Positions 195-24,053 are shown, counted from the stretch's first letter. The stretch is DNA of 27,965 nucleotides from Methanomassiliicoccaceae archaeon (GCA_031285205.1 JAITWO010000002.1:1-27965); one strand, 5' to 3'. Notes: a model not told the origin generated them from the sequence alone. Made by a program: numbers and translations.

Positions 195-1676
195 TTAATC
201 ACGCTTTGCACCGCAGATGTCGCAGTACTTCGCTTCCGGTGGGTTCTCGTCGTATCCGCATGTGTAACATTTGCGAGGTTGCAACTTCGCGCCGCAGCCC
301 TTGCACACTTTCAGATCGATCTGATTCTCGAGGCTGCACGCAGGACATATCAGCCCTTTGACACGTATCTTCTCCACCGCTGCCAACGTTGAATCGTCGC
401 ACTTCCTTTCCTCGTTGTACACACGCACCTCATACTCGCCCATCTTTCCGGAGACATCCTCCATCGGCACCCAGTTATCTCCTTTCTCCAATCTCTTCCG
501 TAAGATGTGCTGTGAGGGGTCTGCGCCGGCAGTGTACAGGCCGACGAACGCGCCGCCCTGGGCCATCCTGCCTGATACGCCTTTCACCGTGATCATCTGG
601 TAGCCCGCATGCTGACTTTTTTCTACGGAGACGGTGACCGCTGTCTCCACATCCGCCGTGACAGAAAATGCTGCACTGGCAATGAGTGTTGTATCGTCCA
701 TGCGGCCGCTGCTGAACATCCGGACCTCATGATCGCCGCCCTGCCATGGCGCTATGAATTTGACCTGGGTGTACCCTCCTGTCTGTACATCCTCCGGGTA
801 CTGCTTCTGCGTATGTTCACTGTGGGGTGCGCCCGTGGGCACGAGGATCGCCACCGCCCCTTCCTTCTTCATCTGCTGCGTCAGCCCGATGACGATCGCA
901 TGGATGGTCTCGCCCCCTTCATATTTACTCCCGGCCGATATGCTCACGCCTGAGTATGGTACTTTCATTCCCTGAGGTCCGGCCGGCCGTGCCGCGGCCG
1001 CAGGCTGTGGCGCTCCCTGCCCTTTTAACATGGCCGCATATTCCGGAGGAAGCGATGCCAGGTATTCCGGGGGGAACATGGCCGCATATTCCGGAGGGAT
1101 GGCGGAAGGCTGTTGCGCTCCCGGACCTGCGCCGACAGTGGGTTGGGGAGGGGGAGATTGTCCCATCTTTCCTCCGCACTCGCCGCAGAACGTCACTTTC
1201 GTCTTGTTCATGTAGCCGCATGACTGACACTCGTATTTTGACGGCCCCGGCTGCGGGGCCGGGGGCTGCATCGCTGCCTGGTTCTTCATTATGGCCATCT
1301 GTTCCGGCGGGATCATGGACATGTATTCCTTAGGGATCATGGACATGTAATCCTGAGGGACTGCATCCGGCTGTTGTGTTCCAGGACCTGCGAAGGCTGC
1401 GGACGGTGCCGCGGCAGCTCCCCGCTTGCTTCCGCACCCTCCGCAGAACGCCGCCGATGCGTTATTTGTGTGCCCGCACGCCGGGCATTTGGCGGGTTGC
1501 TGCGCATCCAGCTTTCCGCCGCATCCGCTGCAGAACCTTGCCCCCGGCGTGTTGGTGTGGCCGCATGACTGACATTTGGCCGAGGGCTGTTCGATCTTTC
1601 CGCCGCATCCGCTGCAGAACCTTGCCCCGTCTGTGTTGCTGTGCCCGCATGCGGAACAGGTCAGGCTCATTGTCAT
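195..1676 (-). CDS. Zinc-ribbon array protein (6 ribbons, PPEY-rich linkers, 2 beta-rich domains)
   Basis: 493-aa ORF with six Cys4 ribbons: CSACGHSNTDGARFCSGCG, CQSCGHTNTPGARFCSGCG, CPACGHTNNASAAFCGGCG, CQSCGYMNKTKVTFCGECG, CPACSLENQIDLKVCKGCG, CYTCGYDENPPEAKYCDICG. Two beta-rich domains (aa ~243-340 and ~346-440) are paralogous to those of 1681..2625. Only a 4-nt gap separates it from the upstream gene. No TM segment or signal peptide seen. Confidence 0.8.
   Translation of the reverse strand: MTMSLTCSACGHSNTDGARFCSGCGGKIEQPSAKCQSCGHTNTPGARFCSGCGGKLDAQQPAKCPACGHTNNASAAFCGGCGSKRGAAAAPSAAFAGPGTQQPDAVPQDYMSMIPKEYMSMIPPEQMAIMKNQAAMQPPAPQPGPSKYECQSCGYMNKTKVTFCGECGGKMGQSPPPQPTVGAGPGAQQPSAIPPEYAAMFPPEYLASLPPEYAAMLKGQGAPQPAAAARPAGPQGMKVPYSGVSISAGSKYEGGETIHAIVIGLTQQMKKEGAVAILVPTGAPHSEHTQKQYPEDVQTGGYTQVKFIAPWQGGDHEVRMFSSGRMDDTTLIASAAFSVTADVETAVTVSVEKSQHAGYQMITVKGVSGRMAQGGAFVGLYTAGADPSQHILRKRLEKGDNWVPMEDVSGKMGEYEVRVYNEERKCDDSTLAAVEKIRVKGLICPACSLENQIDLKVCKGCGAKLQPRKCYTCGYDENPPEAKYCDICGAKRD
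972..1367 (-). repeat. Low-complexity P/A/Q/M linker with tandem PPEY and EYMSMIP motifs, inside CDS 195..1676
   Basis: Protein aa ~104-235 contains DYMSMIPKEYMSMIPPEQMAIM and IPPEYAAMFPPEYLASLPPEYAAML. At DNA level there is an exact 23-nt direct repeat, aacatggccgcatattccggagg, at 1027-1049 and 1075-1097 (48-nt offset). A 16-nt repeat, ggatcatggacatgta, occurs at 1310-1325 and 1334-1349 (24-nt offset). Confidence 0.6.
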
Positions 1677-1680
1677 TCCC

Positions 1681-2625
1681 TCAGAGCTTTCCGCCGCAGG
1701 TCCCGCAGAACTTCAGGTCGGGCGGGTTGTCGGCACCGCATTCTTTGCATTTGCCGGTTGCCATTTTCGTGCCGCACTCGTTGCAGAACTTCGGGTCGGG
1801 CGGGTTCTCGTGGCCGCATTTCGGACATGCCGGGCCTTTTACAGAGAACTTCGCTCTAGCCACGATATCCGATTCATTGTACTCGCCGTTGTCGATCCTG
1901 AACAGACGCAGCTCGAAATCGCCGGTCTCCTCCGACAGGTACATGGAAACCTGGTTGTCCCCTGCCTGCAGACTCTGCCATGTGACGTATGACGAATTGT
2001 CGGCACCCACACGATACAGGCCCAGGAATGCGCGGTTGTGCTCCATCTTCTTGGACACGCCGTTCACTGTGAATATCGTTTCGGTGTTCGGCGAGCACAC
2101 CTTCTTATCCAGTATGATGGACAGCGGCGACTCCTTTTCCGCCGTCGTCGAGAACGCTGCGCTGGAAAGGAGTGTCGAGTCATCCGGAGAACCGCTGCGG
2201 AAGAACCGTACCTCGTAGTTCCCGGCCTCGAACGGCGCCATCAGTTCGATCCTGGCACTCCCTGTTGATTCAGGGTACCTCCAGTCCTGAGAATCATGAT
2301 GGGGCGCCCCGACCGACAATACGGTCGCAAAGGCACCGTCATCCAGCATGCGTTGCGTCACCCCTGCCATGGTTGCGATCACCGCATCGCCGCCCTCGTA
2401 AGAACTCTTCTCCAGAGTGATCGTGACGCTTGCCAGCTGCGCCTTGGCGTCCGCCGGAGGAAGTCCGCACTCGCCGCAGAACTTCGCCGCCATCTTGTTC
2501 ACGTGACCGCATGCCGGACATGTGTACGTTGTCGGTTGTTCTGTTTCCAGCTTTCCGCCGCACTCGCCACAGAACCTCATCGTGTCCTTGTTCTCGTGCC
2601 CACATGACCTGCATGTTATCGGCAT
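1681..2625 (-). CDS. Zinc-ribbon array protein (2 ribbons, 2 beta-rich domains, 2 ribbons); paralog of 195..1676
   Basis: 314-aa ORF with four ribbons: CRSCGHENKDTMRFCGECG, CPACGHVNKMAAKFCGECG, CPKCGHENPPDPKFCNECG, CKECGADNPPDLKFCGTCG. The central domains align with the neighbour, e.g. GGDAVIATMAGVTQRMLDDGAFATVLSVGAPH...GNYEVRFFRSGSPDDSTLLSSAAFS versus GGETIHAIVIGLTQQMKKEGAVAILVPTGAPH...GDHEVRMFSSGRMDDTTLIASAAFS. Confidence 0.8.
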   Translation of the reverse strand: MPITCRSCGHENKDTMRFCGECGGKLETEQPTTYTCPACGHVNKMAAKFCGECGLPPADAKAQLASVTITLEKSSYEGGDAVIATMAGVTQRMLDDGAFATVLSVGAPHHDSQDWRYPESTGSARIELMAPFEAGNYEVRFFRSGSPDDSTLLSSAAFSTTAEKESPLSIILDKKVCSPNTETIFTVNGVSKKMEHNRAFLGLYRVGADNSSYVTWQSLQAGDNQVSMYLSEETGDFELRLFRIDNGEYNESDIVARAKFSVKGPACPKCGHENPPDPKFCNECGTKMATGKCKECGADNPPDLKFCGTCGGKL

Positions 2626-2637
2626 TTACATTCCTCC

Positions 2638-3411
2638 TTAAACTCTGCCTCCGCAGCCTCCGCAGAACTTCGTTCCGGGATCGTTCTGGAAGCCGCATGC
2701 CGAGCATTTTCCGCTTGGCGGGGCCGGAGGTGCAGGAGGTGCCGCCTTCAGGTCCAGTCCGCAGTTGTTGCAGAAGCGGACGTTGGGAGAATTCTTTGCG
2801 CCGCACTTCGGGCAAGATGCCTGTTCCATGTTCGCCCCGCAGTTGTTGCAGAACTTACCGGTTCCCGCCTGTTTGCCGCACTGCGGGCATATGGTCGTCT
2901 TGCTCTCGATCTTTCCGTCCCATACGACGGCGGTGGCCGCCTTCTCGTCGATGTTGCGCTTCATGGCACCAGCCGCGGCCTTTGCCACGTAAACTTCCTG
3001 CCTGGGGGCGCATCCTGTGCACAGTCCCGCATCCTCGTTCCAGCACTGGTCGCAGACGTAGTTGTTATCTCCGGGGCATTTGTGGAAGTGCTTCTTCGAC
3101 TCGTTCTGTGCTTTCACGAACGCATTCTCGTGCTCCTTGTGCCACTCCGGCGTCATACCCTCGAAACGCTCCGAGTATATGCTCGTTGTATCCGACGCTG
3201 CGTTGGCCGCCGTGGCCGTACGGCCGCCCACAAGGCTCCCGCCTATCCTGGCCAGCCCGCCGAATAGCTTGCTTGCCTTCTTCTTCTTGAATGTCTCCGA
3301 TTCTATGAAACTTGATTTGTACCCGTCACCGCAGGCGTCGCAGTTAAATGTGAACTGGAAGCCGGCCTCGGTACTGTTGTCGTTGTAATTCTTTGTGAAT
3401 GCCTGAAGCAT
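2638..3411 (-). CDS. Zinc-ribbon protein (Cys-rich N-terminal domain plus 3 C-terminal ribbons)
   Basis: 257-aa ORF. C-terminal ribbons are CPQCGKQAGTGKFCNNCG, CPKCGAKNSPNVRFCNNCG and CSACGFQNDPGTKFCGGCG, separated by a PPAPPAPP linker. The N-terminal ~190 aa has further Cys clusters (FNCDACG; HKCPGDNNYVCDQCWNEDAGLCTGC). Gaps are 1 nt to the upstream gene and 12 nt to the downstream gene. Confidence 0.75.
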   Translation of the reverse strand: MLQAFTKNYNDNSTEAGFQFTFNCDACGDGYKSSFIESETFKKKKASKLFGGLARIGGSLVGGRTATAANAASDTTSIYSERFEGMTPEWHKEHENAFVKAQNESKKHFHKCPGDNNYVCDQCWNEDAGLCTGCAPRQEVYVAKAAAGAMKRNIDEKAATAVVWDGKIESKTTICPQCGKQAGTGKFCNNCGANMEQASCPKCGAKNSPNVRFCNNCGLDLKAAPPAPPAPPSGKCSACGFQNDPGTKFCGGCGGRV

Positions 3412-3412
3412 G

Positions 3413-3793
3413 TTACTTCATCTCCTTCTTGTACATCTTAATAAGTACTGATTCGCCTTTCTTGATCGCTTTGCCGCATACCGTGCACTTCGTCAGTTCA
3501 AAGAACTGAAGCTCCCCGCACCGCTTGTTCTCGCATTTCACCAACAGGGACCTCCCGCATGCTTCGCATTTCCCGGAACCGACGAACGTCTCTGCCTTGC
3601 AAAGCGGGCAGTTCACCGTCAGCTTCCTGCCGCATCCCGAGCACAGTAGGTTTCCTCTCTCGATCGGCTTCAGGCAGTTCGGGCAGATGAACCCGAATGG
3701 GGTCCTGCTTCCGCATTTGGCACAATATTTACTGTCCCCGTCTATCCTCTCCCCGCAGTGTATGCAGGGTTTGTTGTATGTTGACATAATCAT
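3413..3793 (-). CDS. Small multi-zinc-ribbon protein (4 ribbons), first gene of the operon
   Basis: The ORF track gives 3413..3856. I trim the start to ATG 3793 (MIMSTYNK...) or 3787 because CAGGAGAGA (Shine-Dalgarno-like) lies immediately upstream on the minus strand (3794-3802). Ribbons are CIHCGERIDGDSKYCAKCG, CPNCLKPIERGNLLCSGCG, CPLCKAETFVGSGKCEACG and CENKRCGELQFFELTKCTVCG. Confidence 0.7.
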   Translation of the reverse strand: MIMSTYNKPCIHCGERIDGDSKYCAKCGSRTPFGFICPNCLKPIERGNLLCSGCGRKLTVNCPLCKAETFVGSGKCEACGRSLLVKCENKRCGELQFFELTKCTVCGKAIKKGESVLIKMYKKEMK

Positions 3794-3973
3794 TCTCTCC
3801 TGTCTGTATCCTCTTCTTCCTAAATCACCATGGACGTGTCCGTCTCCTTCGGCCATTTATCTTTTACTGTAGGAAAGGCACCAGGACGGTATTAGTGATT
3901 CTCTGTTTATAAAAATATTGTATATAAGGAATGGCACACAAACAACAAAATACATCATGTTTATGAGGTATGC

Positions 3974-7556: not shown

Positions 7557-8489
7557 TCAGCGCCTGCAGCAGCGCCTTCCCTTGACCGAATCGTAGTACC
7601 ATTTGTCGTACTTGTAGCAGATGACATCCTTCTTTACGTAAGATACATCCTCCTCCGCCCCGGACGAGCAGCATCCGGCCTCTGCCTCCTCCAGCGCATC
7701 CTTTACTTCCGCGATCACTTCTTTTATCCTTGCGGTGTTCGTTACCGTTGTCTTCTTGACCTCGGTGATCGTCGCCTCGACCTCGGCCATCAGGTCCTTT
7801 ATGCTCTCCATGAGCTCGCTGACCTTCGCCGCTTCCGTTATGTTCGCCTTTCTGACGATCGTTATGGTCTCTCTCACCTCGGCGATCACTTCTTTTATCT
7901 CAGTGTTATCGATCATCGCCGGCTCCGTCTCCTCGATCGGCTCCGTCTCAGGTTTGTTGACGCTCTTCTTGGGCTCCGCCTTCTTCTGCTCCCCGATCTT
8001 GGCGAACGGTTTGCCGCTTGTCACGATCTCCCTGATACGCTTGTCCTGCCTGAGCTTGAAGAATAACATGAATGTATCAAAGGCGTCGACCGATGCAAGG
8101 ATGTCATCGTCGAATGACTCCCTCTTCCACGCGCCGTATCTCCAGTCGACAGCGTGCGAGTGCCTCAGGTCGCCCTTCCTTCCGTCGTACTCATATGCAC
8201 CCGTTATCTCACCCACGTTCAGGAGCCTGTCGGAACCCGCCCCGGGGACTATTACCAGGTCACCCACTTTCACTTTCGAGGAGAATGCGCGTCCCTGCAC
8301 GGACATCGTCGTTATCGATCCGTCGGGCTCGTTGGGGTATGCTTTGGCCATCAGCGCCATGAGCTCCGGCATGTCCGTCTTACCCGTTAAATTCGCGTTC
8401 AGGTTGCCGATAAGGAATATCCTGTTCTGATCGGCGAACTTGCCCTCGTATTCTCCCTTCAATCCTGCCCTGCATAGCCAAACTGTCAT
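7557..8489 (-). CDS. Hypothetical protein: N-terminal beta-barrel-like domain, IKEVIAEV coiled-coil repeat, Cys-rich tail
   Basis: 310-aa ORF with GGGAGGA upstream of ATG 8489. The N-terminus (MTVWLCRAGLKGEYE...VGDLVIVPG...NVGEITGAYEYDG...HAVDW) resembles, from memory, the N-terminal module of some Mrr-type restriction endonucleases, but no nuclease motif follows. An 18-nt repeat gcgatcacttcttttatc at 7711-7728 and 7882-7899 encodes the duplicated IKEVIAEV. The tail is CCSSG...CYKYDKWYYDSVKGRRCCRR. Confidence 0.6.
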   Translation of the reverse strand: MTVWLCRAGLKGEYEGKFADQNRIFLIGNLNANLTGKTDMPELMALMAKAYPNEPDGSITTMSVQGRAFSSKVKVGDLVIVPGAGSDRLLNVGEITGAYEYDGRKGDLRHSHAVDWRYGAWKRESFDDDILASVDAFDTFMLFFKLRQDKRIREIVTSGKPFAKIGEQKKAEPKKSVNKPETEPIEETEPAMIDNTEIKEVIAEVRETITIVRKANITEAAKVSELMESIKDLMAEVEATITEVKKTTVTNTARIKEVIAEVKDALEEAEAGCCSSGAEEDVSYVKKDVICYKYDKWYYDSVKGRRCCRR

Positions 8490-10210: not shown

Positions 10211-10831
10211 TTACTTCTCGACGCTGCGTGCGAGCTCCTTGACCTGAACGATGCATTCCTTTATCCTCTCGAGGCTTCCCGAACGTGTGTCCAGTTTCAG
10301 TTTCAGGCCATCGGCCATATCTTTCGCCTTCTGATGATAGAACTCATCGTTCCCTATCCCGGAGTTTATGAAAAGGCAACGTTGATACGATTCGAACATC
10401 AGGTCGAGGAAGTACTGCGGCTCGTACCCTTCCGCAGAGTCCAGGTGGAACTGTTCTATCAGCCCGGGAACTCCCTGTACCGCCCACCCGGGGGACGCGA
10501 ACCAAGTGAACACACATTTCTTCTTCTCTTCTTTCACGCCGTCGGGGCTCAGCAGGACCTCTATGCAGTCGGCACCGGGCAGCATGACCGCCGGGACCTT
10601 GAACACATCTGTCACGCCCTGAAGGGACTGACATGTTGCGTATCCCAGAAGCACCGCATCCACTTCGCTGTGCAATGCGTTCACCTTCTCGATTATCAGC
10701 TTCTTCATCTCCTCCGCATGCTCGTGCAATGCGAACTTCAGATAATCGCGGTGAACGAAGTCCGGATCATCCTTTGTCAAGAATTCTATCTCATCCTTCA
10801 AAACTTCGCATGCAACGATACCTATCCTCAT
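10211..10831 (-). CDS. DUF1638-like protein
   Basis: MRIGIVACEVLKDEIEFL at the N-terminus is typical of DUF1638 (recognised from memory). Start is set at ATG 10831 because it forms an ATGA overlap with the stop of the upstream gene (10828-10831). Confidence 0.55.
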   Translation of the reverse strand: MRIGIVACEVLKDEIEFLTKDDPDFVHRDYLKFALHEHAEEMKKLIIEKVNALHSEVDAVLLGYATCQSLQGVTDVFKVPAVMLPGADCIEVLLSPDGVKEEKKKCVFTWFASPGWAVQGVPGLIEQFHLDSAEGYEPQYFLDLMFESYQRCLFINSGIGNDEFYHQKAKDMADGLKLKLDTRSGSLERIKECIVQVKELARSVEK

Positions 10832-11178
10832 GTCTCGCCGCCTGTCCATTTTTCATCATAGATGACGGAATTGTGCTTCGCCTTCTTCGCGTGCCGCTCG
10901 GACAACATCTCATATTCCATCCACACCGCATGCACCACCGCATTCGTCACCAGGCATACGAACCCTATCGCCCCTCTTATCTCCGGGTCATTTAGTTTGC
11001 TTTTGTAAAAGTCGGTAACGTCGGTAACGGTCAGGCCTTTAAGCTTCTTACCAAAGTCCTGTATCTTCTCGCAATCCGAATCAATATGCACATCAACGCT
11101 TCCTTCTTCGTTCATCTCCGCTGTTATCACATGTGTCTTCTCACATGTGTTCATCTTCACCTTGATAATTGATGTCAT
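10828..11178 (-). CDS. Hypothetical small protein (116 aa)
   Basis: Start is set at ATG 11178, preceded by GGAGAGGGA (minus strand, 11181-11189). It is translationally coupled to the DUF1638 gene. No motif recognised. Confidence 0.5.
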   Translation of the reverse strand: MTSIIKVKMNTCEKTHVITAEMNEEGSVDVHIDSDCEKIQDFGKKLKGLTVTDVTDFYKSKLNDPEIRGAIGFVCLVTNAVVHAVWMEYEMLSERHAKKAKHNSVIYDEKWTGGET

Positions 11179-11309
11179 TCTCCCTCTCCGTGCCTGATCT
11201 GCGCTCATATCGAATATTATCTATATATTGTCTGCTGTCCTGCCCGTTCTGACAGCGGATGTTCCTGCTGTGCCGTTGTGCATGATATCACGATGATCTT
11301 ACAAAAAGT

Positions 11310-11339: not shown

Positions 11340-13853
11340 ATGGGTTACACAGAAGTCCCTGACACAGGGAAGATATTGGAGATCGCTAAGAAATATTATG
11401 AATGGGCGGAGCCGATGATCAAGGCCGGCAGGCCCCAGTTCAATAAGGCGGTCAACTGGAGCCCGAAGTTCGACGGTAAAAAGAAAGATCATAGGAAGGC
11501 CTCCTCCTTATCGTGCGATACCGCCATGGTGGGAACGCTCGGAGGGATGGGCACCATGACTGTGGCCCTGGCGTGCGCCGCGTTCGACCTGGCCTTCGAT
11601 ACCGTCAAGATATCGCAGAACCTTGGCTGCGCCATTGCGATATTCTGCGACAATAACGATGACCCTGACATCATCGCCAAAGAGAAGGAGATATACGAGG
11701 ATGCGGTGACGGTCCTTATCTATGCCCTCTCCCTATCAATGGTCGGTAGCATTCACACCGAAGCAAGCCTCGGTCCGCTTGTCGCCCTCGGCAATTTGTA
11801 TATGGATATGGAGAGGTACGAAGAGGCTAAGGAATTGTTCATGACCGCGCGCCGGATAGACGAATTGTACATGCCCGCACTGAACGGCCTCGCAGCATAC
11901 TACAAAGCAACGAACAAACCTCAGTTCGCCGTCATGATTAAGACCGCCGCGAAGAGCAACCCGACCACTCTCGGGAAGTCCCTGAACAAGATCGGTGAGA
12001 ACAACAAGAAGGCGGAAAAGATATTCAGAGAGGGGGCGGCCGCCAGTGACGAGGAACTTGAGAAAGAGATCGACAAGGCAGAGGAGATAGAGGCTCCCAA
12101 TTACGGGGACATCTTTGACGGCGTCGACCCGAAGAACGCCGAGAAGATGCGGAAGAACAGGAAGGATCTCAACAACAGGATGAAGATCAAGATCCCGAAC
12201 ATACACATACTCACTGCGTTCACGGACATCAACAAAGATAATCAAATCTCCGTCAAATGCGCCGCCGAAGCAGTATCTGATGAGCTCAAGCACCTGCAGA
12301 AATATATCAAGGCGTTATCTAGAGGGAGCGGGAACACGGCCGCGGACGCATTTGAGAATACCGGGATAGGTGATTTCAAGTTCATGGGCATGGACTTCCA
12401 TGAATTTATCAGGGATGCATCGAACAACCCTGCGAAATATGAGAACATGGATACTCGGGATGAGGTCCACCTCCGGACCGACAATCTGGACAAGTACATA
12501 AAAGAACTGAAGGACGGCCTCGGCGAGATAACTGCCGCCCGTCACGGCATGGAAGGAGGGGACAGATTCGGCAGAAAGTTCTCAAGGGCCGCCGCCAAGG
12601 CGAACCTGCTGTTATTCCCTTTCTCTCTGGACCCGTTGAAGTACGCCAATATGTGGGATGTGTTCATACAGCAGTGCAATATCCCGTTATATATCAAAAA
12701 GAAGGCCCTATTGGATGCATATATGATGGGCGTGATGAGAAAATCAAATGAAACGATAACGGACATACAGAGGAACTTTTCCAGAGAGTACGCGGAGATC
12801 CATGAGGCATACGACGCAAAGATGGAAGACCTTAAGGAAAGGTACGACAGAGAGGTGAAGGCATGCGGAGACAATTCTGGTTGCACTTCAGCGGCGGCCA
12901 AACGATATGAACTGAACCTGCACAAACTGCATCTGGAATATTATCCGCAGCTGAACCAGTGCACGAAGAGATACTGGCTCGAGGGAACGGCATGCGCCGC
13001 CATAATGTACGGGAAACTGGAAAGGAACATACCACGGATGTACAAGGAAGTGATGAAACATCTTGTGTACATCTCCGATGAGAAGGTGCGGGCCGAACAG
13101 GAGGACATGCTCGTTGGGGGCATAGCGTCAACCCTCACACATGCCATCGGCCTGGTGCTGAGTACGTACGGCGGAGGGGAGATACTAAGGATAGAGATGT
13201 GCGGATGCGACCCCGAAAGGATGGAACAGCTTACCAAGGAGCTGCAGAAAGAGAAGGAGGAGAAGGATGCCGAGATGCAGCAACGTCAGAAGGCGGCGGA
13301 GAACGCCTTTAAGAACGGCATCATAGATGAAAACTCCTCGTACTACAAGGACTATGTCAAAAAGTGGGAGTATGAGATCGACCTGGTCATTTTCAAATAC
13401 AGGTCCAATGATTATTTCACGACCGGGGATGTGAGCATCCCGACCCCGGTCGGCTCCATTGACGCTTCATCGTTCAGGAACAACATCACACAGGAGTCCA
13501 GAGTCAGTGCGGACGTTACGATCGGCGGGGAGATCGGGCCGGTGGAGCTCAAGGCCACTTTCGGGATCTCCGTCGCATGGGACGCGAACGGAAGGATGCA
13601 CCCGGAGGGATTCGACTTGCGGGCCGGACTTGAGGCGTCGACGGGCGTGGGTCCGCTGTCGGCCACGGCAGGCGTCTCGGCGTCCCTGGAGAGAGGCACG
13701 AAGGTGTATGGCGAGGTAACGTTAAGCGGGAACGATTATATCGATGAGATGAAGGAGCGGGCATTAGGGGAGGAGTTCGGAGGGCTGGCCCCCGAAATGG
13801 ACAACACCATCAAGCTGTGGACGGGGGACTACGTGATCACAGACAAGAATTAA
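11340..13853 (+). CDS. Large orphan protein, paralog A (837 aa): helical/TPR-like N-terminal part, coiled coil, beta-rich C-terminus
   Basis: Long ORF, collinear with 13938..16760. In the conserved block 13038-13118 versus 15678-15758 (MYKEVMKHLVYISDEKVRAEQED[M/I]LVG) I count 11 synonymous and 1 non-synonymous differences in 27 codons, which indicates purifying selection. TPR-like segment LVALGNLYMDMERYEEAKELFMTARRID. No catalytic, TM or signal motif recognised. Confidence 0.8.
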   Translation: MGYTEVPDTGKILEIAKKYYEWAEPMIKAGRPQFNKAVNWSPKFDGKKKDHRKASSLSCDTAMVGTLGGMGTMTVALACAAFDLAFDTVKISQNLGCAIAIFCDNNDDPDIIAKEKEIYEDAVTVLIYALSLSMVGSIHTEASLGPLVALGNLYMDMERYEEAKELFMTARRIDELYMPALNGLAAYYKATNKPQFAVMIKTAAKSNPTTLGKSLNKIGENNKKAEKIFREGAAASDEELEKEIDKAEEIEAPNYGDIFDGVDPKNAEKMRKNRKDLNNRMKIKIPNIHILTAFTDINKDNQISVKCAAEAVSDELKHLQKYIKALSRGSGNTAADAFENTGIGDFKFMGMDFHEFIRDASNNPAKYENMDTRDEVHLRTDNLDKYIKELKDGLGEITAARHGMEGGDRFGRKFSRAAAKANLLLFPFSLDPLKYANMWDVFIQQCNIPLYIKKKALLDAYMMGVMRKSNETITDIQRNFSREYAEIHEAYDAKMEDLKERYDREVKACGDNSGCTSAAAKRYELNLHKLHLEYYPQLNQCTKRYWLEGTACAAIMYGKLERNIPRMYKEVMKHLVYISDEKVRAEQEDMLVGGIASTLTHAIGLVLSTYGGGEILRIEMCGCDPERMEQLTKELQKEKEEKDAEMQQRQKAAENAFKNGIIDENSSYYKDYVKKWEYEIDLVIFKYRSNDYFTTGDVSIPTPVGSIDASSFRNNITQESRVSADVTIGGEIGPVELKATFGISVAWDANGRMHPEGFDLRAGLEASTGVGPLSATAGVSASLERGTKVYGEVTLSGNDYIDEMKERALGEEFGGLAPEMDNTIKLWTGDYVITDKN

Positions 13854-13937: not shown

Positions 13938-16760
13938 ATGGACGGCGCACTGACCCTCGGTAACGAGAGAATATTGAAGATCGCCAAAAAATATTATGAT
14001 TGGGCGAAGCCGATCATCTCCCTCGGCAAGAACGAGTTCAAAAAAGCTGTAGATTGGGTCCCGGAGTTCGACGGCAGGAAAAATGATGTCGAGAAGGCCG
14101 GTACATTATCATTCGATACCGCAATGCTCGGAACCTTTCCCGGGACGGGGACCATAACTGTTGCCTTTGCGTGCGCCGCATTCGACCTCGCCCCCGAAAG
14201 CGTGGTCATGTCACAGAATCTGGGCTCTGCTATCGCACTGTTCTGCGACAACAGTCCCGACCTCAGCATCAAAGAGAAAAAGAAAGAGATATACGAGGAT
14301 GCGGCGGCGGTCCTGATCTATGCCGTCTCTTTGTCATTATCTGAAGACATGTACACTGAGAAAAGCCTCGGACCGCTGGTGGCCCTCGGCAATCTGTTCT
14401 TGGATATGGAGAAGTACGAAGAAGCGAAGCATCTGTTCACGACCGCACGCAGACTGGACGAAACATACATGCCGGCGGTGGAGGGCCTTGCGGCGTATTA
14501 TAAGGCTGTGAAGAAGCCTCAGCTTGCCGGGATGGTCCGTGAGGGTGCGAAGAAGAACCCCACCGGCTGCGGGAGATCGGCCAATGAGATCGATAAGAAT
14601 GTCAAAAAGGCCACCGAGATATCACAGAAAGGGGATGCCAACGAGGAGGAGATGGAAAAGGATATGGATAAAGCCGAAACGGTGGAGGCACCCAATTACG
14701 GCGATCTCTTTGACAGCATCGACCAGGCGACCGCCGCGAAGATCAGGAACAACAGGAAGGAACTGAACAACAGGATGGTCATCACCGTCCCGAACCTCGA
14801 CATACTTTTTCCGTTCACGGATATCACCGAAGATAATCAGATCTCGGTCAAATCTGCCGTCGCTGCAGTAGCTGAGGAAATACCTAAATTGATCAAATAC
14901 ATGAAAAGGCTCCCGATAGGAGCAGCGCACAGGGATGCGGACATACTCGAGAATACGGGGATCGGCGATTTTTACGTCAGGGGCATGAAATTTCATGACT
15001 TTATGCGTGATGCGGCGAACAACCCCCAAAAATATGAAGACAGTAAAATCAACGCAGAAGGCAAAATACGGACGGACAATGCCAATAAATTCATAAAGGA
15101 TATAAAAGACGGCATCGCTGAGACCACTGCCGCCCGTCACGGCATGGAGGGTGGGGACCGATTTGGAAAGAACCTGATGAGGACCGCCGCGAAGGCGGAA
15201 GCGGTGCTCTTCCCGCTGTCCCTGAATCCGTTCAAATATGCTAACGCATGGGATATCCTCCTCCAGCAGTACAATGCCATGCCCCTGATCAGAAAAAGAA
15301 CACTGCTTTTCGGATATATGGCCGAGATACTAAGGAAAAGATCGAAAATATTATTTGAAGTACAACGGAATTATCACAGAGAGTACGGTGAGATCAATGA
15401 CATATTCAAAAGAGAATTGGACGACCTTAAGGAAAGGTACCAAAAACAGATAGACATCATAAACAAAATGATAAGTGACTGTGATGATCAAGGATGCGGA
15501 CGTTGCAAGAGCTTATCAAAGCGGATAGATGATCTGTCCGATCAACATGAAGTGGATAAACATAAGTTGCATTTGAAATACTACCCGCAGCTCAATCAAT
15601 GCACGAAGAGATTCTGGCTTGAAGGTACCGGGGTCGCTATCGTAATGTACAAGAAACTGGAAAGGAACGCACCGCGGATGTACAAAGAGGTGATGAAGCA
15701 CCTCGTGTACATCTCCGACGAGAAAGTACGTGCGGAGCAGGAGGACATACTCGTTGGGACCATAGCGCAGAGTATCGCAAGCGCCATAGGGCTGGTCCTG
15801 GGGGCATACGGCATGGGAGAGATACTCAGGATCGAGCAGTGCGGATGCGACTTCCAAGCGACGGATGAGCTCGAAGAGAGACTGAAGAAGGAGAAGAAGG
15901 AGAAGGATTATGAGATGCTCATGCGCCAGAAGGCGGCACGGGACTCATTCAAGAGCGGTGCGGTGGATGAGAACTCTGCGTTCTACAAGAACTATCTCAA
16001 ACAGTGGGAATACTCGTTCGATGTCGGCTTTTTCAAATATAAGGTCAACGACCACTTCACCACGACCCATCTGAACATAGATCTCAAGCTTGGATCCTTC
16101 GACTACTCATCCTTTCAAAGCAATATCACGAAGGCAGGCAGTGTGAAAGCTGACCTCACTCTCAAATTGGAGAAACAGGGCGTGGATGTGAAGGGTGAGG
16201 CCACATTCGGCTTCACGTATGTCTGGGACAAGAACGGGAATCCTCATCCGGACGGTTTTGACCTGCGTGCCGGTCTTAAAGCAACGGCGAGCTTGGGGCC
16301 GATCGAGACTGAGATCGGCATATCTTCATCCGTTCGGGAGGGTTTCAACGCGACTGCCGGGGCAAAGGTCTCAGGTGAGCAAGGGCCGGTCAGTGCCGAG
16401 GTCGGTGTGACGGCATCCACTAAGGACGGCGTTGACGCGAATGCCGAATTAGTAGTTTCAGGAGAGTATGGGCCGGCCACGGGCGATGCAAAAGTATCAG
16501 TGTCCACTAAGGACGGCGTTGACGCGAGTGTCAGTGCCGAGGTTTCCGGCAGCAAAGGTCCCCTCCAGGGCGAGGCAAAGGCGTCAGCATCCCTCCAGGG
16601 AGGTGTGAAGGCGTCCGCCGAGGCCAAGATGAGCGGGAACGAATATATTGATGCGCTGAAGGAGGCGGCCTTAGGAGAGACGCTTGCAGAGAACATCTCT
16701 TTGCCAAATTTTGACCGTGAACTATGGGGCGGCGAGTACTCCTCCAAGGGCGATGAGTGA
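13938..16760 (+). CDS. Large orphan protein, paralog B (940 aa), with expanded C-terminal 29-aa repeats
   Basis: Collinear with paralog A. Shared blocks include ILxIAKKYYxWAxP, DTAMxGT, ACAAFDLA, NYGDxFD, ENTGIGDF, AARHGMEGGDRFG, YPQLNQCTKRxWLEGT, GEILRIExCGCD, DENSxxYKxYxKxWEY and GFDLRAGL. It is about 100 aa longer because of the repeats at 16371-16631. Confidence 0.8.
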   Translation: MDGALTLGNERILKIAKKYYDWAKPIISLGKNEFKKAVDWVPEFDGRKNDVEKAGTLSFDTAMLGTFPGTGTITVAFACAAFDLAPESVVMSQNLGSAIALFCDNSPDLSIKEKKKEIYEDAAAVLIYAVSLSLSEDMYTEKSLGPLVALGNLFLDMEKYEEAKHLFTTARRLDETYMPAVEGLAAYYKAVKKPQLAGMVREGAKKNPTGCGRSANEIDKNVKKATEISQKGDANEEEMEKDMDKAETVEAPNYGDLFDSIDQATAAKIRNNRKELNNRMVITVPNLDILFPFTDITEDNQISVKSAVAAVAEEIPKLIKYMKRLPIGAAHRDADILENTGIGDFYVRGMKFHDFMRDAANNPQKYEDSKINAEGKIRTDNANKFIKDIKDGIAETTAARHGMEGGDRFGKNLMRTAAKAEAVLFPLSLNPFKYANAWDILLQQYNAMPLIRKRTLLFGYMAEILRKRSKILFEVQRNYHREYGEINDIFKRELDDLKERYQKQIDIINKMISDCDDQGCGRCKSLSKRIDDLSDQHEVDKHKLHLKYYPQLNQCTKRFWLEGTGVAIVMYKKLERNAPRMYKEVMKHLVYISDEKVRAEQEDILVGTIAQSIASAIGLVLGAYGMGEILRIEQCGCDFQATDELEERLKKEKKEKDYEMLMRQKAARDSFKSGAVDENSAFYKNYLKQWEYSFDVGFFKYKVNDHFTTTHLNIDLKLGSFDYSSFQSNITKAGSVKADLTLKLEKQGVDVKGEATFGFTYVWDKNGNPHPDGFDLRAGLKATASLGPIETEIGISSSVREGFNATAGAKVSGEQGPVSAEVGVTASTKDGVDANAELVVSGEYGPATGDAKVSVSTKDGVDASVSAEVSGSKGPLQGEAKASASLQGGVKASAEAKMSGNEYIDALKEAALGETLAENISLPNFDRELWGGEYSSKGDE
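16371..16631 (+). repeat. Three in-frame 87-nt (29-aa) tandem repeats in the paralog-B C-terminus
   Basis: The units are SGEQGPVSAEVGVTASTKDGVDANAELVV, SGEYGPATGDAKVSVSTKDGVDASVSAEV and SGSKGPLQGEAKASASLQGGVKASAEAKM. An exact 25-nt core, tccactaaggacggcgttgacgcga, occurs at 16416-16440 and 16503-16527 (87-nt offset). Confidence 0.65.
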
Positions 16761-16842: not shown

Positions 16843-17160
16843 ATGAACGATCGCTATATTGACGATGCACGTGTATTCAAAGCGTTCTGTGACGAGAACC
16901 GTCTGAAGATATTGGAGATGTTACAGAGCGGCGAGAAATGCGCATGCATACTCCTGGAACGGATGGACATATCACAGCCGACGTTATCGCATCATATGAG
17001 GATACTTTGCGACAGTGGGATCGTCGTTCCACGCAAAGATGGTAAGTGGACCCATTACTCGATAAGCTCTGAGGGACGCGATAACGCCATGGACCTTCTA
17101 TGCCGACTTACCAACCTCATACCCAACGGCGAATGCTGCACCGAGAGGTGCTTCGAATGA
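16843..17160 (+). CDS. ArsR/SmtB-family transcriptional regulator
   Basis: FKAFCDENRLKILEMLQSGEKCACILLERMDISQPTLSHHMRILCDSGIV is a canonical ArsR winged-HTH with a Cys-x-Cys metal-sensing-type site. GAGGG lies 6 nt upstream of the ATG. The stop overlaps the hgcA start (ATGA, 17157-17160). Confidence 0.9.
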   Translation: MNDRYIDDARVFKAFCDENRLKILEMLQSGEKCACILLERMDISQPTLSHHMRILCDSGIVVPRKDGKWTHYSISSEGRDNAMDLLCRLTNLIPNGECCTERCFE

Positions 17161-18158
17161 GCGATCGTTGCTGCGGGAACGATCCGGCGGGAATAATGAG
17201 AGCTGATACGGTCATGACATTCAGGGACCGCCTCGGTGCGCTGAAGGTGCGGTGCGGGATAGGACGCAACAATTACAAGGTAACACCCGGGCTGTATGCA
17301 TTGGGAAGTCCTGATGACAAGTCCGCAGTGTTCGTCAGCGCTAATTATAAACTAACGTTCGACAGCCTGCGGAAGGAGCTTTCGGGGATGGACTGCTATA
17401 TTCTGATATTGGATACGAAGGGGGTGAATGTCTGGTGCGCCGCAGGGAAGGGCACGTTCGGGACCGATGAATTAGTGAGTCGCATCGAAAAGACGGGGCT
17501 TGCGGGCATTGTGTCCCACAGAGAGCTCATTTTGCCGCAGCTCGGTGCATCCGGGGTATGTGCGCATAATGTAAAAAGGCGCACCGGCTTCGAAGTGATC
17601 TACGGCCCGGTGCGCGCATCCGATATCAAGAAGTTCATAGCGGCCGGGATGGATGCTGACGATGATATGAGGGCGGTCAGATTCACAACACGTGACCGTA
17701 TCGTCCTCGTGCCGATGGAGTTCATCCCGGCGATGAAGTTTTCTTTACCGATATTCGGGATACTTTTCCTTGCCAATATGATCCTCAGGGAACCTTTCGG
17801 TATAGAGGACCTTGCGACATACATGTGCGCTCTGGCTGCGGGCGCGGTCCTCACACCTGTCCTTCTTCCTATTATACCCGGAAGGGCGTTCTCGCTTAAA
17901 GGATGGATCGTAGGCATTCTGCTGACGCTGTTCGCAGTATGGCAATTCGGGTGGCTTCAGGATGACATCATCGTTGCATCTGGCTATCTGCTCCTTATTC
18001 CTTCGGTGTCCGCATACTTCGCGATGAACTTTACAGGTTCATCAACTTACACGTCCCCGTCCGGGGTGCTGAAGGAGATGAGGTTTGCCGTTCCATTCAT
18101 CCTCATCACCGTGATCATAGGATCGATATTGCTGTTCATAGGGAAGGTGATCGTATGA
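17157..18158 (+). CDS. hgcA: Mercury-methylation corrinoid protein HgcA
   Basis: The hallmark cap-helix motif GVNVWCAAGKGTFGT is present (N-V-W-C-A-A-G-K at 17427-17450, Cys codon 17436-17438, residue 94 from the ATG at 17157). The corrinoid-binding domain is followed by about 5 C-terminal TM helices. Start trimmed from the ORF-track 17100 to the ATGA-coupled ATG. Confidence 0.9.
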   Translation: MSDRCCGNDPAGIMRADTVMTFRDRLGALKVRCGIGRNNYKVTPGLYALGSPDDKSAVFVSANYKLTFDSLRKELSGMDCYILILDTKGVNVWCAAGKGTFGTDELVSRIEKTGLAGIVSHRELILPQLGASGVCAHNVKRRTGFEVIYGPVRASDIKKFIAAGMDADDDMRAVRFTTRDRIVLVPMEFIPAMKFSLPIFGILFLANMILREPFGIEDLATYMCALAAGAVLTPVLLPIIPGRAFSLKGWIVGILLTLFAVWQFGWLQDDIIVASGYLLLIPSVSAYFAMNFTGSSTYTSPSGVLKEMRFAVPFILITVIIGSILLFIGKVIV

Positions 18159-21389: not shown

Positions 21390-21925
21390 TGCCGTCGATC
21401 GATTATATCATAGATGCGGTTAAAGACGCTGTCGCCGCCGTCGACCCGAAAGCGGTGGATGAACTGATAGATAATATCATACACTCCAAGACCGTCTTCG
21501 TGTTCGGAGTGGGGAGGTCGGGGCTGGCGGGGCAGTTCTTCTGCGTCAGATTGGTCCAGATGGGCCTGGATGTGCATTTTGTCGGTGAGATGACGACGCC
21601 GATAATAACCAAGGATGACCTTACGATACTCATCTCCGGTACCGGAAATACGATGTCGGCCGTTCAGACGGCGAACATAGCCAGACGCATCGGTTCTAAG
21701 GTCATGGCGGTCACCGCCCGGGCTGATACGAAACTTGCGATAGCATCCGATTCGGTCATTCTGCTTCCGGAGGCCAGGGATAAAGAGAGATCAAAATATG
21801 CGCCGCTCGGCACCATATTTGAAAATGCGGCCGTCCTTTTCCTGGACAGCATAGTACCGATGATAATGGAACGCCTTGGGCTCACGGAATCTGACATGAG
21901 GAAGCGTCACGCCATCTGGGTGTGA
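21389..21925 (+). CDS. hxlB: 6-phospho-3-hexuloisomerase (PHI, SIS domain)
   Basis: VFVFGVGRSGLAGQFFCVRLVQMGLDVHFVGEMTTP...DLTILISGTGNT...KYAPLGTIFENAAVLFLD...RH matches archaeal PHI (MJ1247-type, as I recall that sequence) along the whole length. Confidence 0.85.
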   Translation: MPSIDYIIDAVKDAVAAVDPKAVDELIDNIIHSKTVFVFGVGRSGLAGQFFCVRLVQMGLDVHFVGEMTTPIITKDDLTILISGTGNTMSAVQTANIARRIGSKVMAVTARADTKLAIASDSVILLPEARDKERSKYAPLGTIFENAAVLFLDSIVPMIMERLGLTESDMRKRHAIWV

Positions 21926-22425
21926 TCCTCCAAGACCACCATCGATGCTTCCGTTGTGCCGTCAGCTGAGCCTTTGAATACCTTCATCTCTTCCTTCATC
22001 GGGTCTATGACCATCGCGAACCCCGTTTCTCCGAACGCCGCCTTATGTGTGCTCTTATCGGTCTCTGACATGAAGCACCCTATCCCCAGATGAGAATGGT
22101 ACCATCCTACTATCACATACTCGAAATCGAGGTTGTCCAGTGCATCGAACAGCGTCACCATGTCATCAGGGTCGAAACGCACGCTTACCTCGTCCGATAT
22201 GAGCGCCGACGTGACCGCTTTGCTCACTGTTGCGTAATACCCGCCGTCATCCCTGTACACATGCCCCGCCAGGAGTCCCATGACCTCCGCGTTCTCATTC
22301 ATCCCTTTCTCAGCGTGGTCAAGCATGTCGCATATCGCCCCCTCTGAGACAAAGATGTCGGCATTCACCGCCCTTCTGCGTTCGGGTATGTCCGCGGCCG
22401 TGTGCTGTGTTATGAGTGGCATCAT
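21907..22425 (-). CDS. JAB/MPN+ (JAMM) metalloprotease, Rpn11-like deubiquitylase candidate
   Basis: Glu in NAEVMGLLAG and the complete JAMM motif H-S-H-LGIGCFM-S-ET-D (H-x-H-x7-S-x2-D, 22057-22098). ATGA overlap with the E2 stop (22422-22425). Confidence 0.85.
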   Translation of the reverse strand: MMPLITQHTAADIPERRRAVNADIFVSEGAICDMLDHAEKGMNENAEVMGLLAGHVYRDDGGYYATVSKAVTSALISDEVSVRFDPDDMVTLFDALDNLDFEYVIVGWYHSHLGIGCFMSETDKSTHKAAFGETGFAMVIDPMKEEMKVFKGSADGTTEASMVVLEDHTQMA

Positions 22426-22910
22426 TTGCTCCCGAAGCTCACGTACGCATTAATCTTTGTCTCGTTGTCCATATAGAACCTTGATGATTCCATACATATC
22501 TCAAGACCGAACGGGTTCGATATGTTCGGACTTCCCACAAGATTCTCCACTGCCTTCATGAATGACAGCAGCGTGGAGCCGAATGACCACTTATCAAGCA
22601 GTTTTATGCAGACGTACCCTCCGTCCTCAGGCGGCATGATGTTCGGATGGAATATCGGCGTCTCCCACCTTGCCCTCGGCTTCTCGAAGGGATATTCCTC
22701 ATTTATCACCACTTTGTACCTGTGGTCCTTTATCTGCACCACCTCATCATCCGTCTTAGCGTATGCGGGAACATTGGTCATGTTCACGGTTATCTCTATC
22801 GGAAATGTCACCTTGTCCGGGTCGAACCGTATGTCCGACCCTATGTAGCCGGAGCACCTCTCCAGCTCATTGGTCAGTCTTTTTATCAGCACCGGTCGCG
22901 GAAGCCCCAA
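22422..22910 (-). CDS. UBC-fold ubiquitin-conjugating enzyme (E2)
   Basis: N-terminal helix RLTNELERC, PFEKPRARWETPIFHPNI (HPN at 22641-22649), catalytic-type Cys in DGGYVCIKLLDKW (Cys101, codon 22608-22610), then SPNISNPFG. The order and spacing match eukaryotic E2 core signatures. The ATG directly abuts the Ubl stop. Confidence 0.85.
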   Translation of the reverse strand: MGLPRPVLIKRLTNELERCSGYIGSDIRFDPDKVTFPIEITVNMTNVPAYAKTDDEVVQIKDHRYKVVINEEYPFEKPRARWETPIFHPNIMPPEDGGYVCIKLLDKWSFGSTLLSFMKAVENLVGSPNISNPFGLEICMESSRFYMDNETKINAYVSFGSK

Positions 22911-23150
22911 TCAGCCACCCTCCGGGTCCGGAAGAAGCTCCAGGACATCATCGTTGAGGATGTTCGCCTCCATCACAGTGTCTGTTGCCCTCAGCAGCGA
23001 TTTCCCTTTTCTGAGCACGTACGCCCTCGGATCCTTCTTCCAGAACTCCGCGGCGCTCTCTATTATATCATATACAGTCTCTTTCGGCCCGAGGTCCATC
23101 TTCAGTGTCGCGCCGAGCGTTGCGTTCTTTACCAAAACGTGTATCCCCAT
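22911..23150 (-). CDS. Ubiquitin-like beta-grasp protein ending in Gly-Gly-stop
   Basis: 79 aa: MGIHVLVKNATLGATLKMDLGPKETVYDIIESAAEFWKKDPRAYVLRKGKSLLRATDTVMEANILNDDVLELLPDPEGG*. The length, the strand/helix alternation and the terminal GG (22914-22919) immediately before the stop are ubiquitin/SAMP-like. It sits between the E1 and E2 genes. Confidence 0.75.
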   Translation of the reverse strand: MGIHVLVKNATLGATLKMDLGPKETVYDIIESAAEFWKKDPRAYVLRKGKSLLRATDTVMEANILNDDVLELLPDPEGG

Positions 23151-23152
23151 TC

Positions 23153-23923
23153 TTACTCCTCCTCATGATTCGCACATCTGTCATCCTTCTTTATCTCCAA
23201 TACGATCGTTTCACCGGACATCCCGTCATAGAACGCCGCGTTCCTGATGCATATGTCCTCCCTGCCGGACGCTATCTTGACCGCCTCCCGTATCTGCATG
23301 GCGGCTATCGCTGACGTTGTTGTTATCTCGGCGGCCATCTTCGGAACGTAAAAGACCGATCCGTTGCCGGTGCAGCTGAACCTTGTTTCCGCGATACCGT
23401 AATGCGACCTGTTCATGGAGCACTGAAGGCACGGCCCGTCCGGGAGGACGACCTGCACTTTACCGTACATCCCGTCCGTGCCTCCGTCCACGTACGGTAT
23501 CCTGTGATAACAGGCATGAGCATTCACGTGGAGCCTTGCAGATATATTGTCAACGCACCCTAAAATCATACTGAATTCATCCCAGTCGCCGATATCCTGT
23601 GCGAGTGTGCGCCTTGGTGTTATCGTCACCTCATGATCAAGTTCTGATGCACGCATCGCCAGTATATCGGATTTCATGCCTTCTTTTACATCCGATCCTC
23701 TGAAGAAGACGCATCTGTTGAGATTTGATGTTACGACGGAATCATTGTCCGCTATCGTGATATCCCTGAACCCGGACAGCACAAGGCACTTCACCGCCTC
23801 GTTCCCCAGGGCGCCCGCTCCGACGACAAGACATCTGGCCCTTCCGATCTTATCGATATTCACCCAATCGATCCTCTTCGATCTGTCGAAACGGTCCATG
23901 TCGTATTCCTTGGCTCTGATCAT
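23153..23923 (-). CDS. E1-like ubiquitin-activating enzyme (ThiF/MoeB/UBA family)
   Basis: RFDRS...IGRARCLVVGAGALGNEAVK (GxGxxG at 23804-23821), ITIADNDSVVTSNLNR, C-x2-C (CLQC) and a second Cys pair region. Start trimmed from the ORF-track 24163 to ATG 23923. The extension overlaps the convergently readable gene at 24054 and crosses an A/T-rich promoter-like stretch. TATTATAC lies exactly 30 nt upstream of 23923. Confidence 0.85.
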   Translation of the reverse strand: MIRAKEYDMDRFDRSKRIDWVNIDKIGRARCLVVGAGALGNEAVKCLVLSGFRDITIADNDSVVTSNLNRCVFFRGSDVKEGMKSDILAMRASELDHEVTITPRRTLAQDIGDWDEFSMILGCVDNISARLHVNAHACYHRIPYVDGGTDGMYGKVQVVLPDGPCLQCSMNRSHYGIAETRFSCTGNGSVFYVPKMAAEITTTSAIAAMQIREAVKIASGREDICIRNAAFYDGMSGETIVLEIKKDDRCANHEEE

Positions 23924-23945
23924 CTGTTCTAACAACGCCGCCGTA

Positions 23946-23953
23946 GTATAATA
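23946..23953 (-). promoter_or_regulatory. TATA-like box (TATTATAC on minus strand) 30 nt upstream of the E1 ATG
   Basis: It lies within the A/T-rich 23941-23990 divergent intergenic region. No Shine-Dalgarno sequence lies between the box and ATG 23923, which gives a leaderless geometry. Confidence 0.4.
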
Positions 23954-24023
23954 GGTATATCTATTTATATTTAGTATAATATTCATACTGTGCCGAACGG
24001 GGTGCCGACGCAGAACGGTAAAA

Positions 24024-24029
24024 ATATAA
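24024..24029 (+). promoter_or_regulatory. TATA-like box (AAAATATAA core) 30 nt upstream of ATG 24054
   Basis: It is the divergent partner of the E1 promoter. ATATAA starts at -30 relative to the 24054 ATG. Confidence 0.35.
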
Positions 24030-24053
24030 CCGCAGTGTGCATCCGTATGAATA

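Follow-up and report, generated by a model that had tools for sequence, protein, structure and literature searches.

A conserved pair of zinc-ribbon genes common to gut methanogens and gut Clostridia, with lineage-specific ribbon-bearing neighbours in a Methanomassiliicoccaceae archaeon

What is the function of a gene cluster that encodes 17 zinc ribbons and no recognizable enzyme? Such a cluster, consisting of four consecutive minus-strand open reading frames (ORFs) that we refer to as G1, G2, G3 and G4, is present in the window analysed here, a 27,965-nucleotide contig of a Methanomassiliicoccaceae metagenome-assembled genome (MAG; GCA_031285205.1, JAITWO010000002.1). Proteins of this kind are currently annotated as 'zinc ribbon domain-containing protein' or 'hypothetical', and a preliminary description of the window had read the four genes together as one dedicated multivalent zinc-ribbon scaffold. 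Here, we report that G1 and G2 are a strongly conserved, uncharacterised pair common to gut methanogens and gut Clostridia, and that G3 and G4 are lineage-specific add-ons with beta-sandwich-type domains. The four genes may represent a composite, non-enzymatic cytoplasmic operon in which a G1-G2 hub is accompanied by ribbon-tagged partners; we put the probability of this reading at roughly 40%.

The G1-G2 pair and the variable position behind it

A search with G2 returned 1756 database matches, the best 120 of which are full-length and 62-73% identical to the query. In a species scan covering one genome per species, G2 loci were detected in 213 of 185,579 genomes. The carriers include Methanomassiliicoccaceae and Methanoplasma and, in larger numbers, Oscillospiraceae, Lachnospiraceae, Christensenellales, Family XIII and Coriobacteriia; among them are the isolates Diplocloster modestus and Bittarella massiliensis as well as the cultured Ca. 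Methanoplasma termitum, and every carrier seen is a strict anaerobe from a gut or digester. Synteny was determined for 84 genome loci with G2 relatives. In 82 of these 84 loci, a G1-type gene is located directly upstream of the G2-type gene, despite differing flanks. The recurrent outer neighbours of the pair are LuxR-type regulators together with solute-binding and ABC proteins, which give no functional clue.

Across Archaea and Bacteria, identity is 60-73% for G2 and 46-68% for G1. In a neighbour-joining tree of G2, the Methanomassiliicoccales sequences, among them that of the window, group in one clade and those of the Bacillota in another. The identity of 60-65% that G2 retains across the two domains argues for horizontal transfer combined with strong constraint. 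G2 homologues on three MAG contigs labelled Methanomicrobiales, Methanocalculaceae and Bathyarchaeia (L023, L028 and L058) nest inside the bacterial clade, and these contigs either document further inter-domain transfers or are mis-binned. In phage and plasmid collections, G2 was absent bar one single-ribbon match in an unannotated faecal phage record (23% coverage, 38.7% identity, E = 1e-4); therefore, an origin of the pair from a mobile element or a phage was dropped.

The gene that follows the pair varies. In 51 of the 84 loci it encodes X, an unrelated family of 386-500 amino acids (aa) with two PH-like repeats in the N-terminal part and with conservation of the C-terminal domain, in which E318, E347, R353, R385, H394 and W400 are invariant, and for which no relative was detected in Pfam or the PDB. 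Among 54 X ORFs, 19 end in a low-complexity linker followed by one generic ribbon. In loci that lack X, the next gene often encodes a membrane protein composed of an N-terminal ribbon and DUF4870 (12 loci) or a helical protein with a double ribbon; in one locus (L060), a helical protein with a double ribbon replaces G1 itself. Overall, a ribbon-bearing ORF occupies the position directly after G2 in 17 of 59 loci as compared to 15 of 570 distant ORFs (odds ratio 15, p = 7e-11).

In the window, G1 lies upstream of G2 on the same strand, and the four genes are separated by 1 (G1/G2), 12 (G2/G3) and 4 nt (G3/G4), as previously described. The X profile gave no match to the six-frame translation of the window, and the third position is held by G3. 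Both G3 with 2 + 2 ribbons and G4 with 4 + 2 ribbons match the pattern of ribbon-bearing genes in the slot after G2. A G3-type gene directly follows G2 in three of six informative contexts, with gaps of 5-12 nt in three independent contexts, i.e. the window, a sister contig that has the same DHH/TyrRS/TctA/NhaP flank and the order G1-G2-G3 followed by a convergent ABC transporter (L087), and a locus with the order G2-G3-X (L089). An RCC1-repeat gene, which in the window follows G4, was absent from every related locus examined, including the position after G3 in L087. Thus, the synteny data support that the four-gene set is lineage-specific and that G1-G2 is the sole conserved unit. A conserved set of all four genes plus RCC1, which the preliminary description had raised, was not found, and only part of its scaffold proposal is retained: no catalytic domain was found in the four proteins, which fit a scaffold or adaptor, but the four genes are not one unit. 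In total, we conclude that G3 is an optional insert and that G3 and G4 are add-ons of this lineage.

Ribbons and accompanying domains of the four proteins

By a regular-expression count, G1-G4 contain 4, 3, 4 and 6 Cys4 ribbons, in agreement with the total of 17 reported earlier. The exact spacing C-x2-C-x3-N-x6-C-x2-C including its Asn, previously ascribed to most ribbons, is present in 11 of the 17; all 17 are Cys4 ribbons of two knuckles, the fourth ribbon of G1 opening with C-x4-C. A protein was counted as a family member if its profile score reached the Pfam gathering cut-off. On this basis, all four proteins belong to DZR (PF12773; 44.5, 44.4, 84.8 and 96.9 bits for G1, G2, G3 and G4 at a cut-off of 27.3) and to Zn_Ribbon_1 (PF13240; 30.1, 36.1, 67.9 and 66.8 bits at a cut-off of 25). 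Because the DZR scores exceed the cut-off with E-values from 1e-11 to 7e-28, the ribbon motifs are not chance matches. By contrast, a search of G1-G4 with the RanBP2-type family (PF00641), which the preliminary description had named alongside these two, matched G4 alone with 21.0 bits versus a cut-off of 27; this sub-threshold match falls on the last ribbon of G4 and is the only RanBP-type Pfam match. The Trp two residues ahead of the first Cys, a feature of PS01358, is found in none of the 17 ribbons, and the T-F dipeptide past the first knuckle is likewise missing, with G-H or G-x at this position in all ribbons; both observations agree with the earlier account, which had noted the missing leading Trp and the missing T-F. 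We assign the ribbons to the generic DZR/Zn_Ribbon_1 type, with a resemblance to RanBP2/NZF fingers in spacing only and not in membership.

We know of no role for the generic DZR/Zn_Ribbon_1 ribbon, which is appended via flexible linkers to thousands of prokaryotic proteins, and a literature search on DZR function and on the G1-G2(-X) cassette found nothing relevant. In keeping with the previously noted lack of transmembrane helices and catalytic motifs, G1-G4 contain no transmembrane-like segment (maximum Kyte-Doolittle value 1.38 over 19-residue windows) and no enzymatic Pfam or NCBIfam family. Similarly, the anti-phage models of PADLOC-DB 2.0 gave zero matches to G1-G4 and X. The preliminary description had the ribbons joined by Pro/Ala/Gln linkers. 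Such linkers do occur, as in G4; however, this description was incomplete, as it overlooked ~570 residues of non-ribbon domain, i.e. the N-domain of G2 and the tandem globular pairs of G3 and G4.

The N-domain of G2 comprises ~170 aa, has no ribbon and carries seven extra conserved Cys, where homologues mostly have eight. Conserved residues are C24, C27, C112, C120, C123, C131 and C134 together with W90 and W164; position 115 is Asp in place of Cys, as it is in many family members. In an alignment of 120 sequences, the invariant columns include F5, N8, C24, C27, W90, C112, C120, C123, C131 and W164, and all are present in G2 of the window. An AlphaFold2 model built from this alignment has a predicted local distance difference test score (pLDDT) of 82-92 for the ordered parts of the N-domain. 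In this model, the CxxC knuckles sit on small beta-hairpins, which are accompanied by two long helices and by a Gly-rich loop (residues 51-80) that is disordered. The N-domain is probably a split two-metal module. It had no match in Pfam, NCBIfam or PDB sequences, and a Foldseek search of the G2 model against the PDB and BFVD gave nothing at E<1e-3; only single ribbons aligned to small fingers (ZRANB2, Trabid and the TAB2 NZF) at E>1.

G3 and G4 share tandem ~100-aa repeats with invariant G, M, A, GA, G and G-E-R positions, and G4 is an expanded paralogue of G3. An exhaustive profile search with this beta-sandwich-type domain (hereafter beta-domain) retrieved 1286 representatives at E<=1e-3, of which 470 reached E<=1e-10. 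When the central domain of G3 was used in a word-indexed homologue search, it matched only itself, and there is no Pfam model for the family. Weak matches, all of them sub-threshold, were to MG2 (PDB 2p9r, E = 0.33; Pfam MG2 in 6 of 34 members, best E = 0.0019) and SKICH (3 of 34 members). The top representatives are mostly tandem arrays in proteins that combine a signal-peptide-like N-terminus with SLH domains or BspA-type LRRs, i.e. bacterial surface proteins. This dominance of secreted SLH/LRR proteins suggests that the beta-domain is a binding or structural module rather than a catalytic one. When G2, the beta-domain and X were compared as profiles with PDB sequences, nothing other than the ribbons matched significantly. 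Three sizeable families, namely the N-domain of G2, the beta-domain and X, have neither a Pfam model nor a detected solved relative.

The Pro/Ala/Gln linker of G4 carries an (I/L)P(P/K)E(Y/Q)xxM module in three copies. Two triple short repeats, VPQDYMSMIPKEYMSMIPPEQMAIM and IPPEYAAMFPPEYLASLPPEYAAML, each follow a ribbon (at about 1280-1376 and 1010-1100, residues ~101-132 and ~193-221); they resemble PPxY-type short linear motifs and are kept as LTPEQxAMIPPEQ in the G4 orthologue P0143. P0143 matches G4 in its six ribbons and in its PPEQ/PPEY modules. A divergent gene 236 nt upstream of P0143 (L088, 5237-7765) encodes an 842-aa orthologue of a protein from the window, to which it is 55% identical. 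The latter (837 aa, 11340-13853) and its 940-aa paralogue (13938-16760) are encoded on the plus strand, are 55% identical to each other and have no Pfam or NCBIfam family. This arrangement hints at a possible link between the 837/940-aa family and G4-type proteins.

Table 1. Features of the gene cluster, its flanks and protein X. Coordinates refer to the window unless a locus is named.
Feature	Coordinates	Strand	Basis or remarks
G1 ORF	3413-3856 (longest); homologue-supported start 3787 or 3793	-	ORF scan, homologue alignment
G1, small basic protein	3413..3793	-	four contiguous Cys4 ribbons, 16 Cys
G2 ORF	2638-3411	-	ORF scan
G2 N-domain (residues 1-172)	2896..3411	-	alignments, AlphaFold2 model
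G2 C-terminal part	2638..2889	-	double ribbon (residues 175-218), PAPP linker, third ribbon (236-254)
G3 ORF	1681-2625	-	ORF scan
G3 N-terminal ribbon pair (residues 5-56)	2458..2613	-	profile and regular expression
G3 tandem ~100-aa beta-sandwich-type domains (residues 58-262)	1840..2454	-	internal repeat; motif G..M..AF..Y..GA.H...G.YE.R.Y
G3 C-terminal double ribbon (residues 267-314)	1684..1827	-	profile and regular expression
G4 ORF	195-1676	-	ORF scan
G4 N-terminal half	1164..1658	-	three ribbons (residues 7-81), P/A/Q linker, fourth ribbon (150-168), second PPEY x3 module
G4 tandem beta-sandwich-type pair (residues ~238-441)	354..965	-	paralogous to G3 pair
G4 C-terminal double ribbon (residues 444-492)	198..347	-	profile and regular expression
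Divergent intergenic region common to DHH gene	3857-3973	-	A/T-rich TATA-like boxes (TTATATA, TTTTTATAAA) at ~3905-3925
RCC1-repeat protein, first 47 codons	1-141	-	53 nt past G4 stop, truncated by contig end
X, examples	L001 8811-10046; L003 8838-10175		51/84 related loci

A possible docking role and its alternatives

A scaffold or adaptor role would be the most economical reading of the four proteins. In the mechanism that we propose, G1, with its four fused Cys4 ribbons, and G2, with its novel Cys-rich N-domain and three ribbons, would form an obligately paired, probably heteromeric core. This pair would have been inherited within the Methanomassiliicoccales, and the gut Bacillota would share it owing to a transfer between the domains long ago. 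Behind the core lies a variable slot, usually taken by X and often by proteins with a generic ribbon on a flexible linker; in the lineage of the window it holds G3, adjoined by the expanded paralogue G4. G3 and G4 would each display a tandem pair of Ig-like beta-sandwiches between terminal double ribbons. The ribbons may act as metal-stabilised docking units that anchor the accessory proteins on the G1-G2 hub, or that link all of the proteins to one common ligand, while the beta-sandwich pairs may provide a binding surface and the extra ribbons of G4 may raise the valency.

Several observations weigh against such a hub with ribbon-tagged partners. Although X is the commonest partner, ~65% of X proteins have no ribbon, and the enrichment of ribbons in the slot after G2 is based on crude ORF calling and a regular expression. 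Moreover, G3-like genes are found alone, away from G1-G2, in two contexts (L085 and L086), and the G4 orthologue P0143 stands alone in L088. Because the generic ribbon is common in Bacillota, its clustering could reflect shared regulation rather than docking. Finally, the single-sequence AlphaFold model of G3 had a pLDDT of 46 and was too poor for a fold search; therefore, the beta-sandwich assignment is made from secondary-structure content and the sub-threshold MG2 and SKICH matches.

Many zinc ribbons bind RNA or DNA. Accordingly, the ribbon arrays, especially those of the basic G1 and G2 (isoelectric points 9.1 and 8.5), could bind nucleic acid, in which case G3, G4 or X would be the effector or adaptor. 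The net charge of most ribbons is +1 to +3, and the 60-70% conservation across the two domains would be explained if the ligand were one found in all Archaea and Bacteria. Moreover, the ssRNA-binding finger of ZRANB2 (3g9y) can be superposed on single ribbons in the G2 model (TM-score 0.79 over 27 aa, E = 1.9), and there are weak sequence matches to ribosomal zinc-ribbon proteins and PolD DP2. However, the structural matches lack significance, none of the nucleic-acid-binding families exceeded its threshold in G1-G4, G3 is acidic (isoelectric point 5.3), and no replication, transcription or RNA-processing genes recur as neighbours of the pair. We consider this explanation unlikely.

The second alternative is that only G1-G2, elsewhere together with X, is a system, and that G3 and G4 are functionally independent of it, the 17-ribbon operon being a juxtaposition. 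This would agree with the absence of the beta-domain from all 84 genome loci with G1-G2 and with the occurrence of the G3-like P0130 and the G4-like P0143 without G1-G2 nearby. Ribbons are present in 7 of the 149 top beta-domain representatives, so that the G3-like architecture is rare; it was found in 3 of 80 metagenome loci, as a metagenome scan with full-length G3-like proteins gave mostly ribbon-only matches and true relatives only in L090-L092. The three contexts in which a G3-like gene closely follows G2 argue against independence, as do the 15-fold enrichment of ribbon-bearing genes in that slot and the gap between G3 and G4, which argues for co-translation. We regard independence, too, as an unlikely account.

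As a third alternative, the ~19 Cys4 sites could buffer or store zinc, or could bind iron in the manner of rubredoxin and thereby sense oxidative stress or the redox state, or else relay electrons, in strict anaerobes. Zinc-ribbon and rubredoxin knuckles have the same fold, Cys residues are very densely packed in the sequence (16 in the ~124 aa of G1), the carriers are strict gut and digester anaerobes, and there is a weak match to a miniaturised rubredoxin (5sbg, E = 0.24). By contrast, the Pfam rubredoxin profile gave no match to G1-G4 even at E<=1, non-Cys surface residues are strongly conserved, which is unusual for a storage protein, and no metal transporter or regulator recurs near G1-G2, a ZIP/NikR pair being present in L087 only. 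A metal or redox function is improbable.

Finally, the possibility that NZF-like ribbons serve the ubiquitin cassette of the window, a link that the preliminary description had itself called speculation, was rejected as highly improbable, because, despite the RanBP2/NZF spacing of 11 ribbons, the superposition of single ribbons on the TAB2 and Trabid NZF fingers (TM-score 0.74-0.83, E>2) and the presence of a JAB-E2-E1 cassette in the window, the ribbons failed the NZF tests described above, G1-G2 carriers are mostly Bacillota, no E1, E2 or JAB family recurs among the neighbours of G1-G2 loci, and the cassette is 18 kb away with ribosomal and transporter genes in between.

A G1-G2 hub with ribbon-tagged partners can also be framed more broadly: the generic ribbon would be a tag for docking that can be carried from protein to protein, and G1-G2 would be the dedicated 'ribbon hub' to which tagged clients such as X, the DUF4870 membrane proteins, G3 and G4 are recruited, the hub being horizontally shared between gut Bacillota and Methanomassiliicoccales. 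This broader version is rather unlikely; if true, it would reveal a way of recruiting proteins that operates in Bacteria as well as in Archaea and has so far gone unnoticed. Few unexplained appendages are as common on bacterial and archaeal proteins as generic zinc ribbons are. A core that is strictly paired, has survived inter-domain transfer and attracts ribbon-tagged neighbours provides a concrete genetic handle on what these ribbons bind, and it is present in the three cultured carriers named above. Should the ribbons prove to be docking tags, the annotation 'zinc ribbon domain-containing protein' would become informative in many cases; otherwise, the genes would be an ordinary cluster of uncharacterised metal-binding proteins.

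Surroundings of the cluster and comparison with known systems

A Shine-Dalgarno-like sequence precedes the start of each of G1-G4. The start of G1 supported by NCBI annotation and homologues (3787, MSTYNKPC...) lies two codons inside the one given in the preliminary description (3793). The divergent intergenic region upstream of G1 is the probable promoter of the cluster, and a scan of the minus strand from 195 to 3856 found no terminator-like site. The truncated RCC1-repeat protein begins MYGVDGTIWACGYNSSGQLGDG... and is without a signal peptide. An Rfam search of the whole window gave zero RNA families.

The eukaryote-like ubiquitin cassette occupies 21907-24163 on the minus strand and consists of overlapping or abutting genes for a JAB/MPN protease (21907-22425), a UQ_con E2 (22422-22910) and a ThiF-type E1 (23153-24163); the preliminary description had placed a ubiquitin-like protein in the gap at 22911-23150. 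On the minus strand at 7557-8489, a 310-aa protein without a Pfam match hits the PADLOC candidate defence family PDC-S02 at E = 4e-31, and the syntenic gene in L087 carries a DUF8426 annotation. Genes for DUF1638, DUF6951 and a CdhD-like protein (10211-11208 and 17100-18158) and for a Pterin_bind protein and an HdrD-like protein (24244-26144) have no relation to the ribbon cluster and are consistent with the metabolism of a methyl-reducing methanogen.

Compared with known systems, the ribbons have the same CxxCG...(K/R)FCxxCG knuckle pairs as the Pfam families DZR and Zn_Ribbon_1, which occur on many prokaryotic proteins; however, these families cover the ribbon alone and have no assigned function, and they include neither the G2 N-domain, the beta-sandwich pairs nor the pairing of G1 with G2. 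RanBP2/NZF fingers (PF00641, PS01358) have the spacing and Asn of 11 of the 17 ribbons and the same zinc-ribbon fold (TM-score ~0.8 over 24-31 residues, with E-values of the fold search that are not significant), whereas the ribbons described here have neither the leading Trp nor T-F and stay below the family cut-off. For the ~100-aa domain of G3 and G4, an all-beta structure is predicted, with weak matches to MG2, SKICH and Ig-like domains; all of these matches are sub-threshold, and the domain of G3 and G4 would be cytoplasmic and ribbon-flanked rather than secreted.

The N-terminal ZnR domain of ZitP binds PopZ, a polar cytoplasmic scaffold of alpha-proteobacteria (PMC5182065). There, a zinc ribbon is a docking determinant for a scaffold, which is analogous to the role proposed here for the ribbon-tagged partners; however, the ZitP ribbon is of the MJ0042 type, its partner is PopZ and the taxa are others, and we draw an analogy only and claim no homology. 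The cassette is an uncharacterised conserved unit that is made up of a known motif and, in the window, is joined by an accessory pair specific to the lineage.

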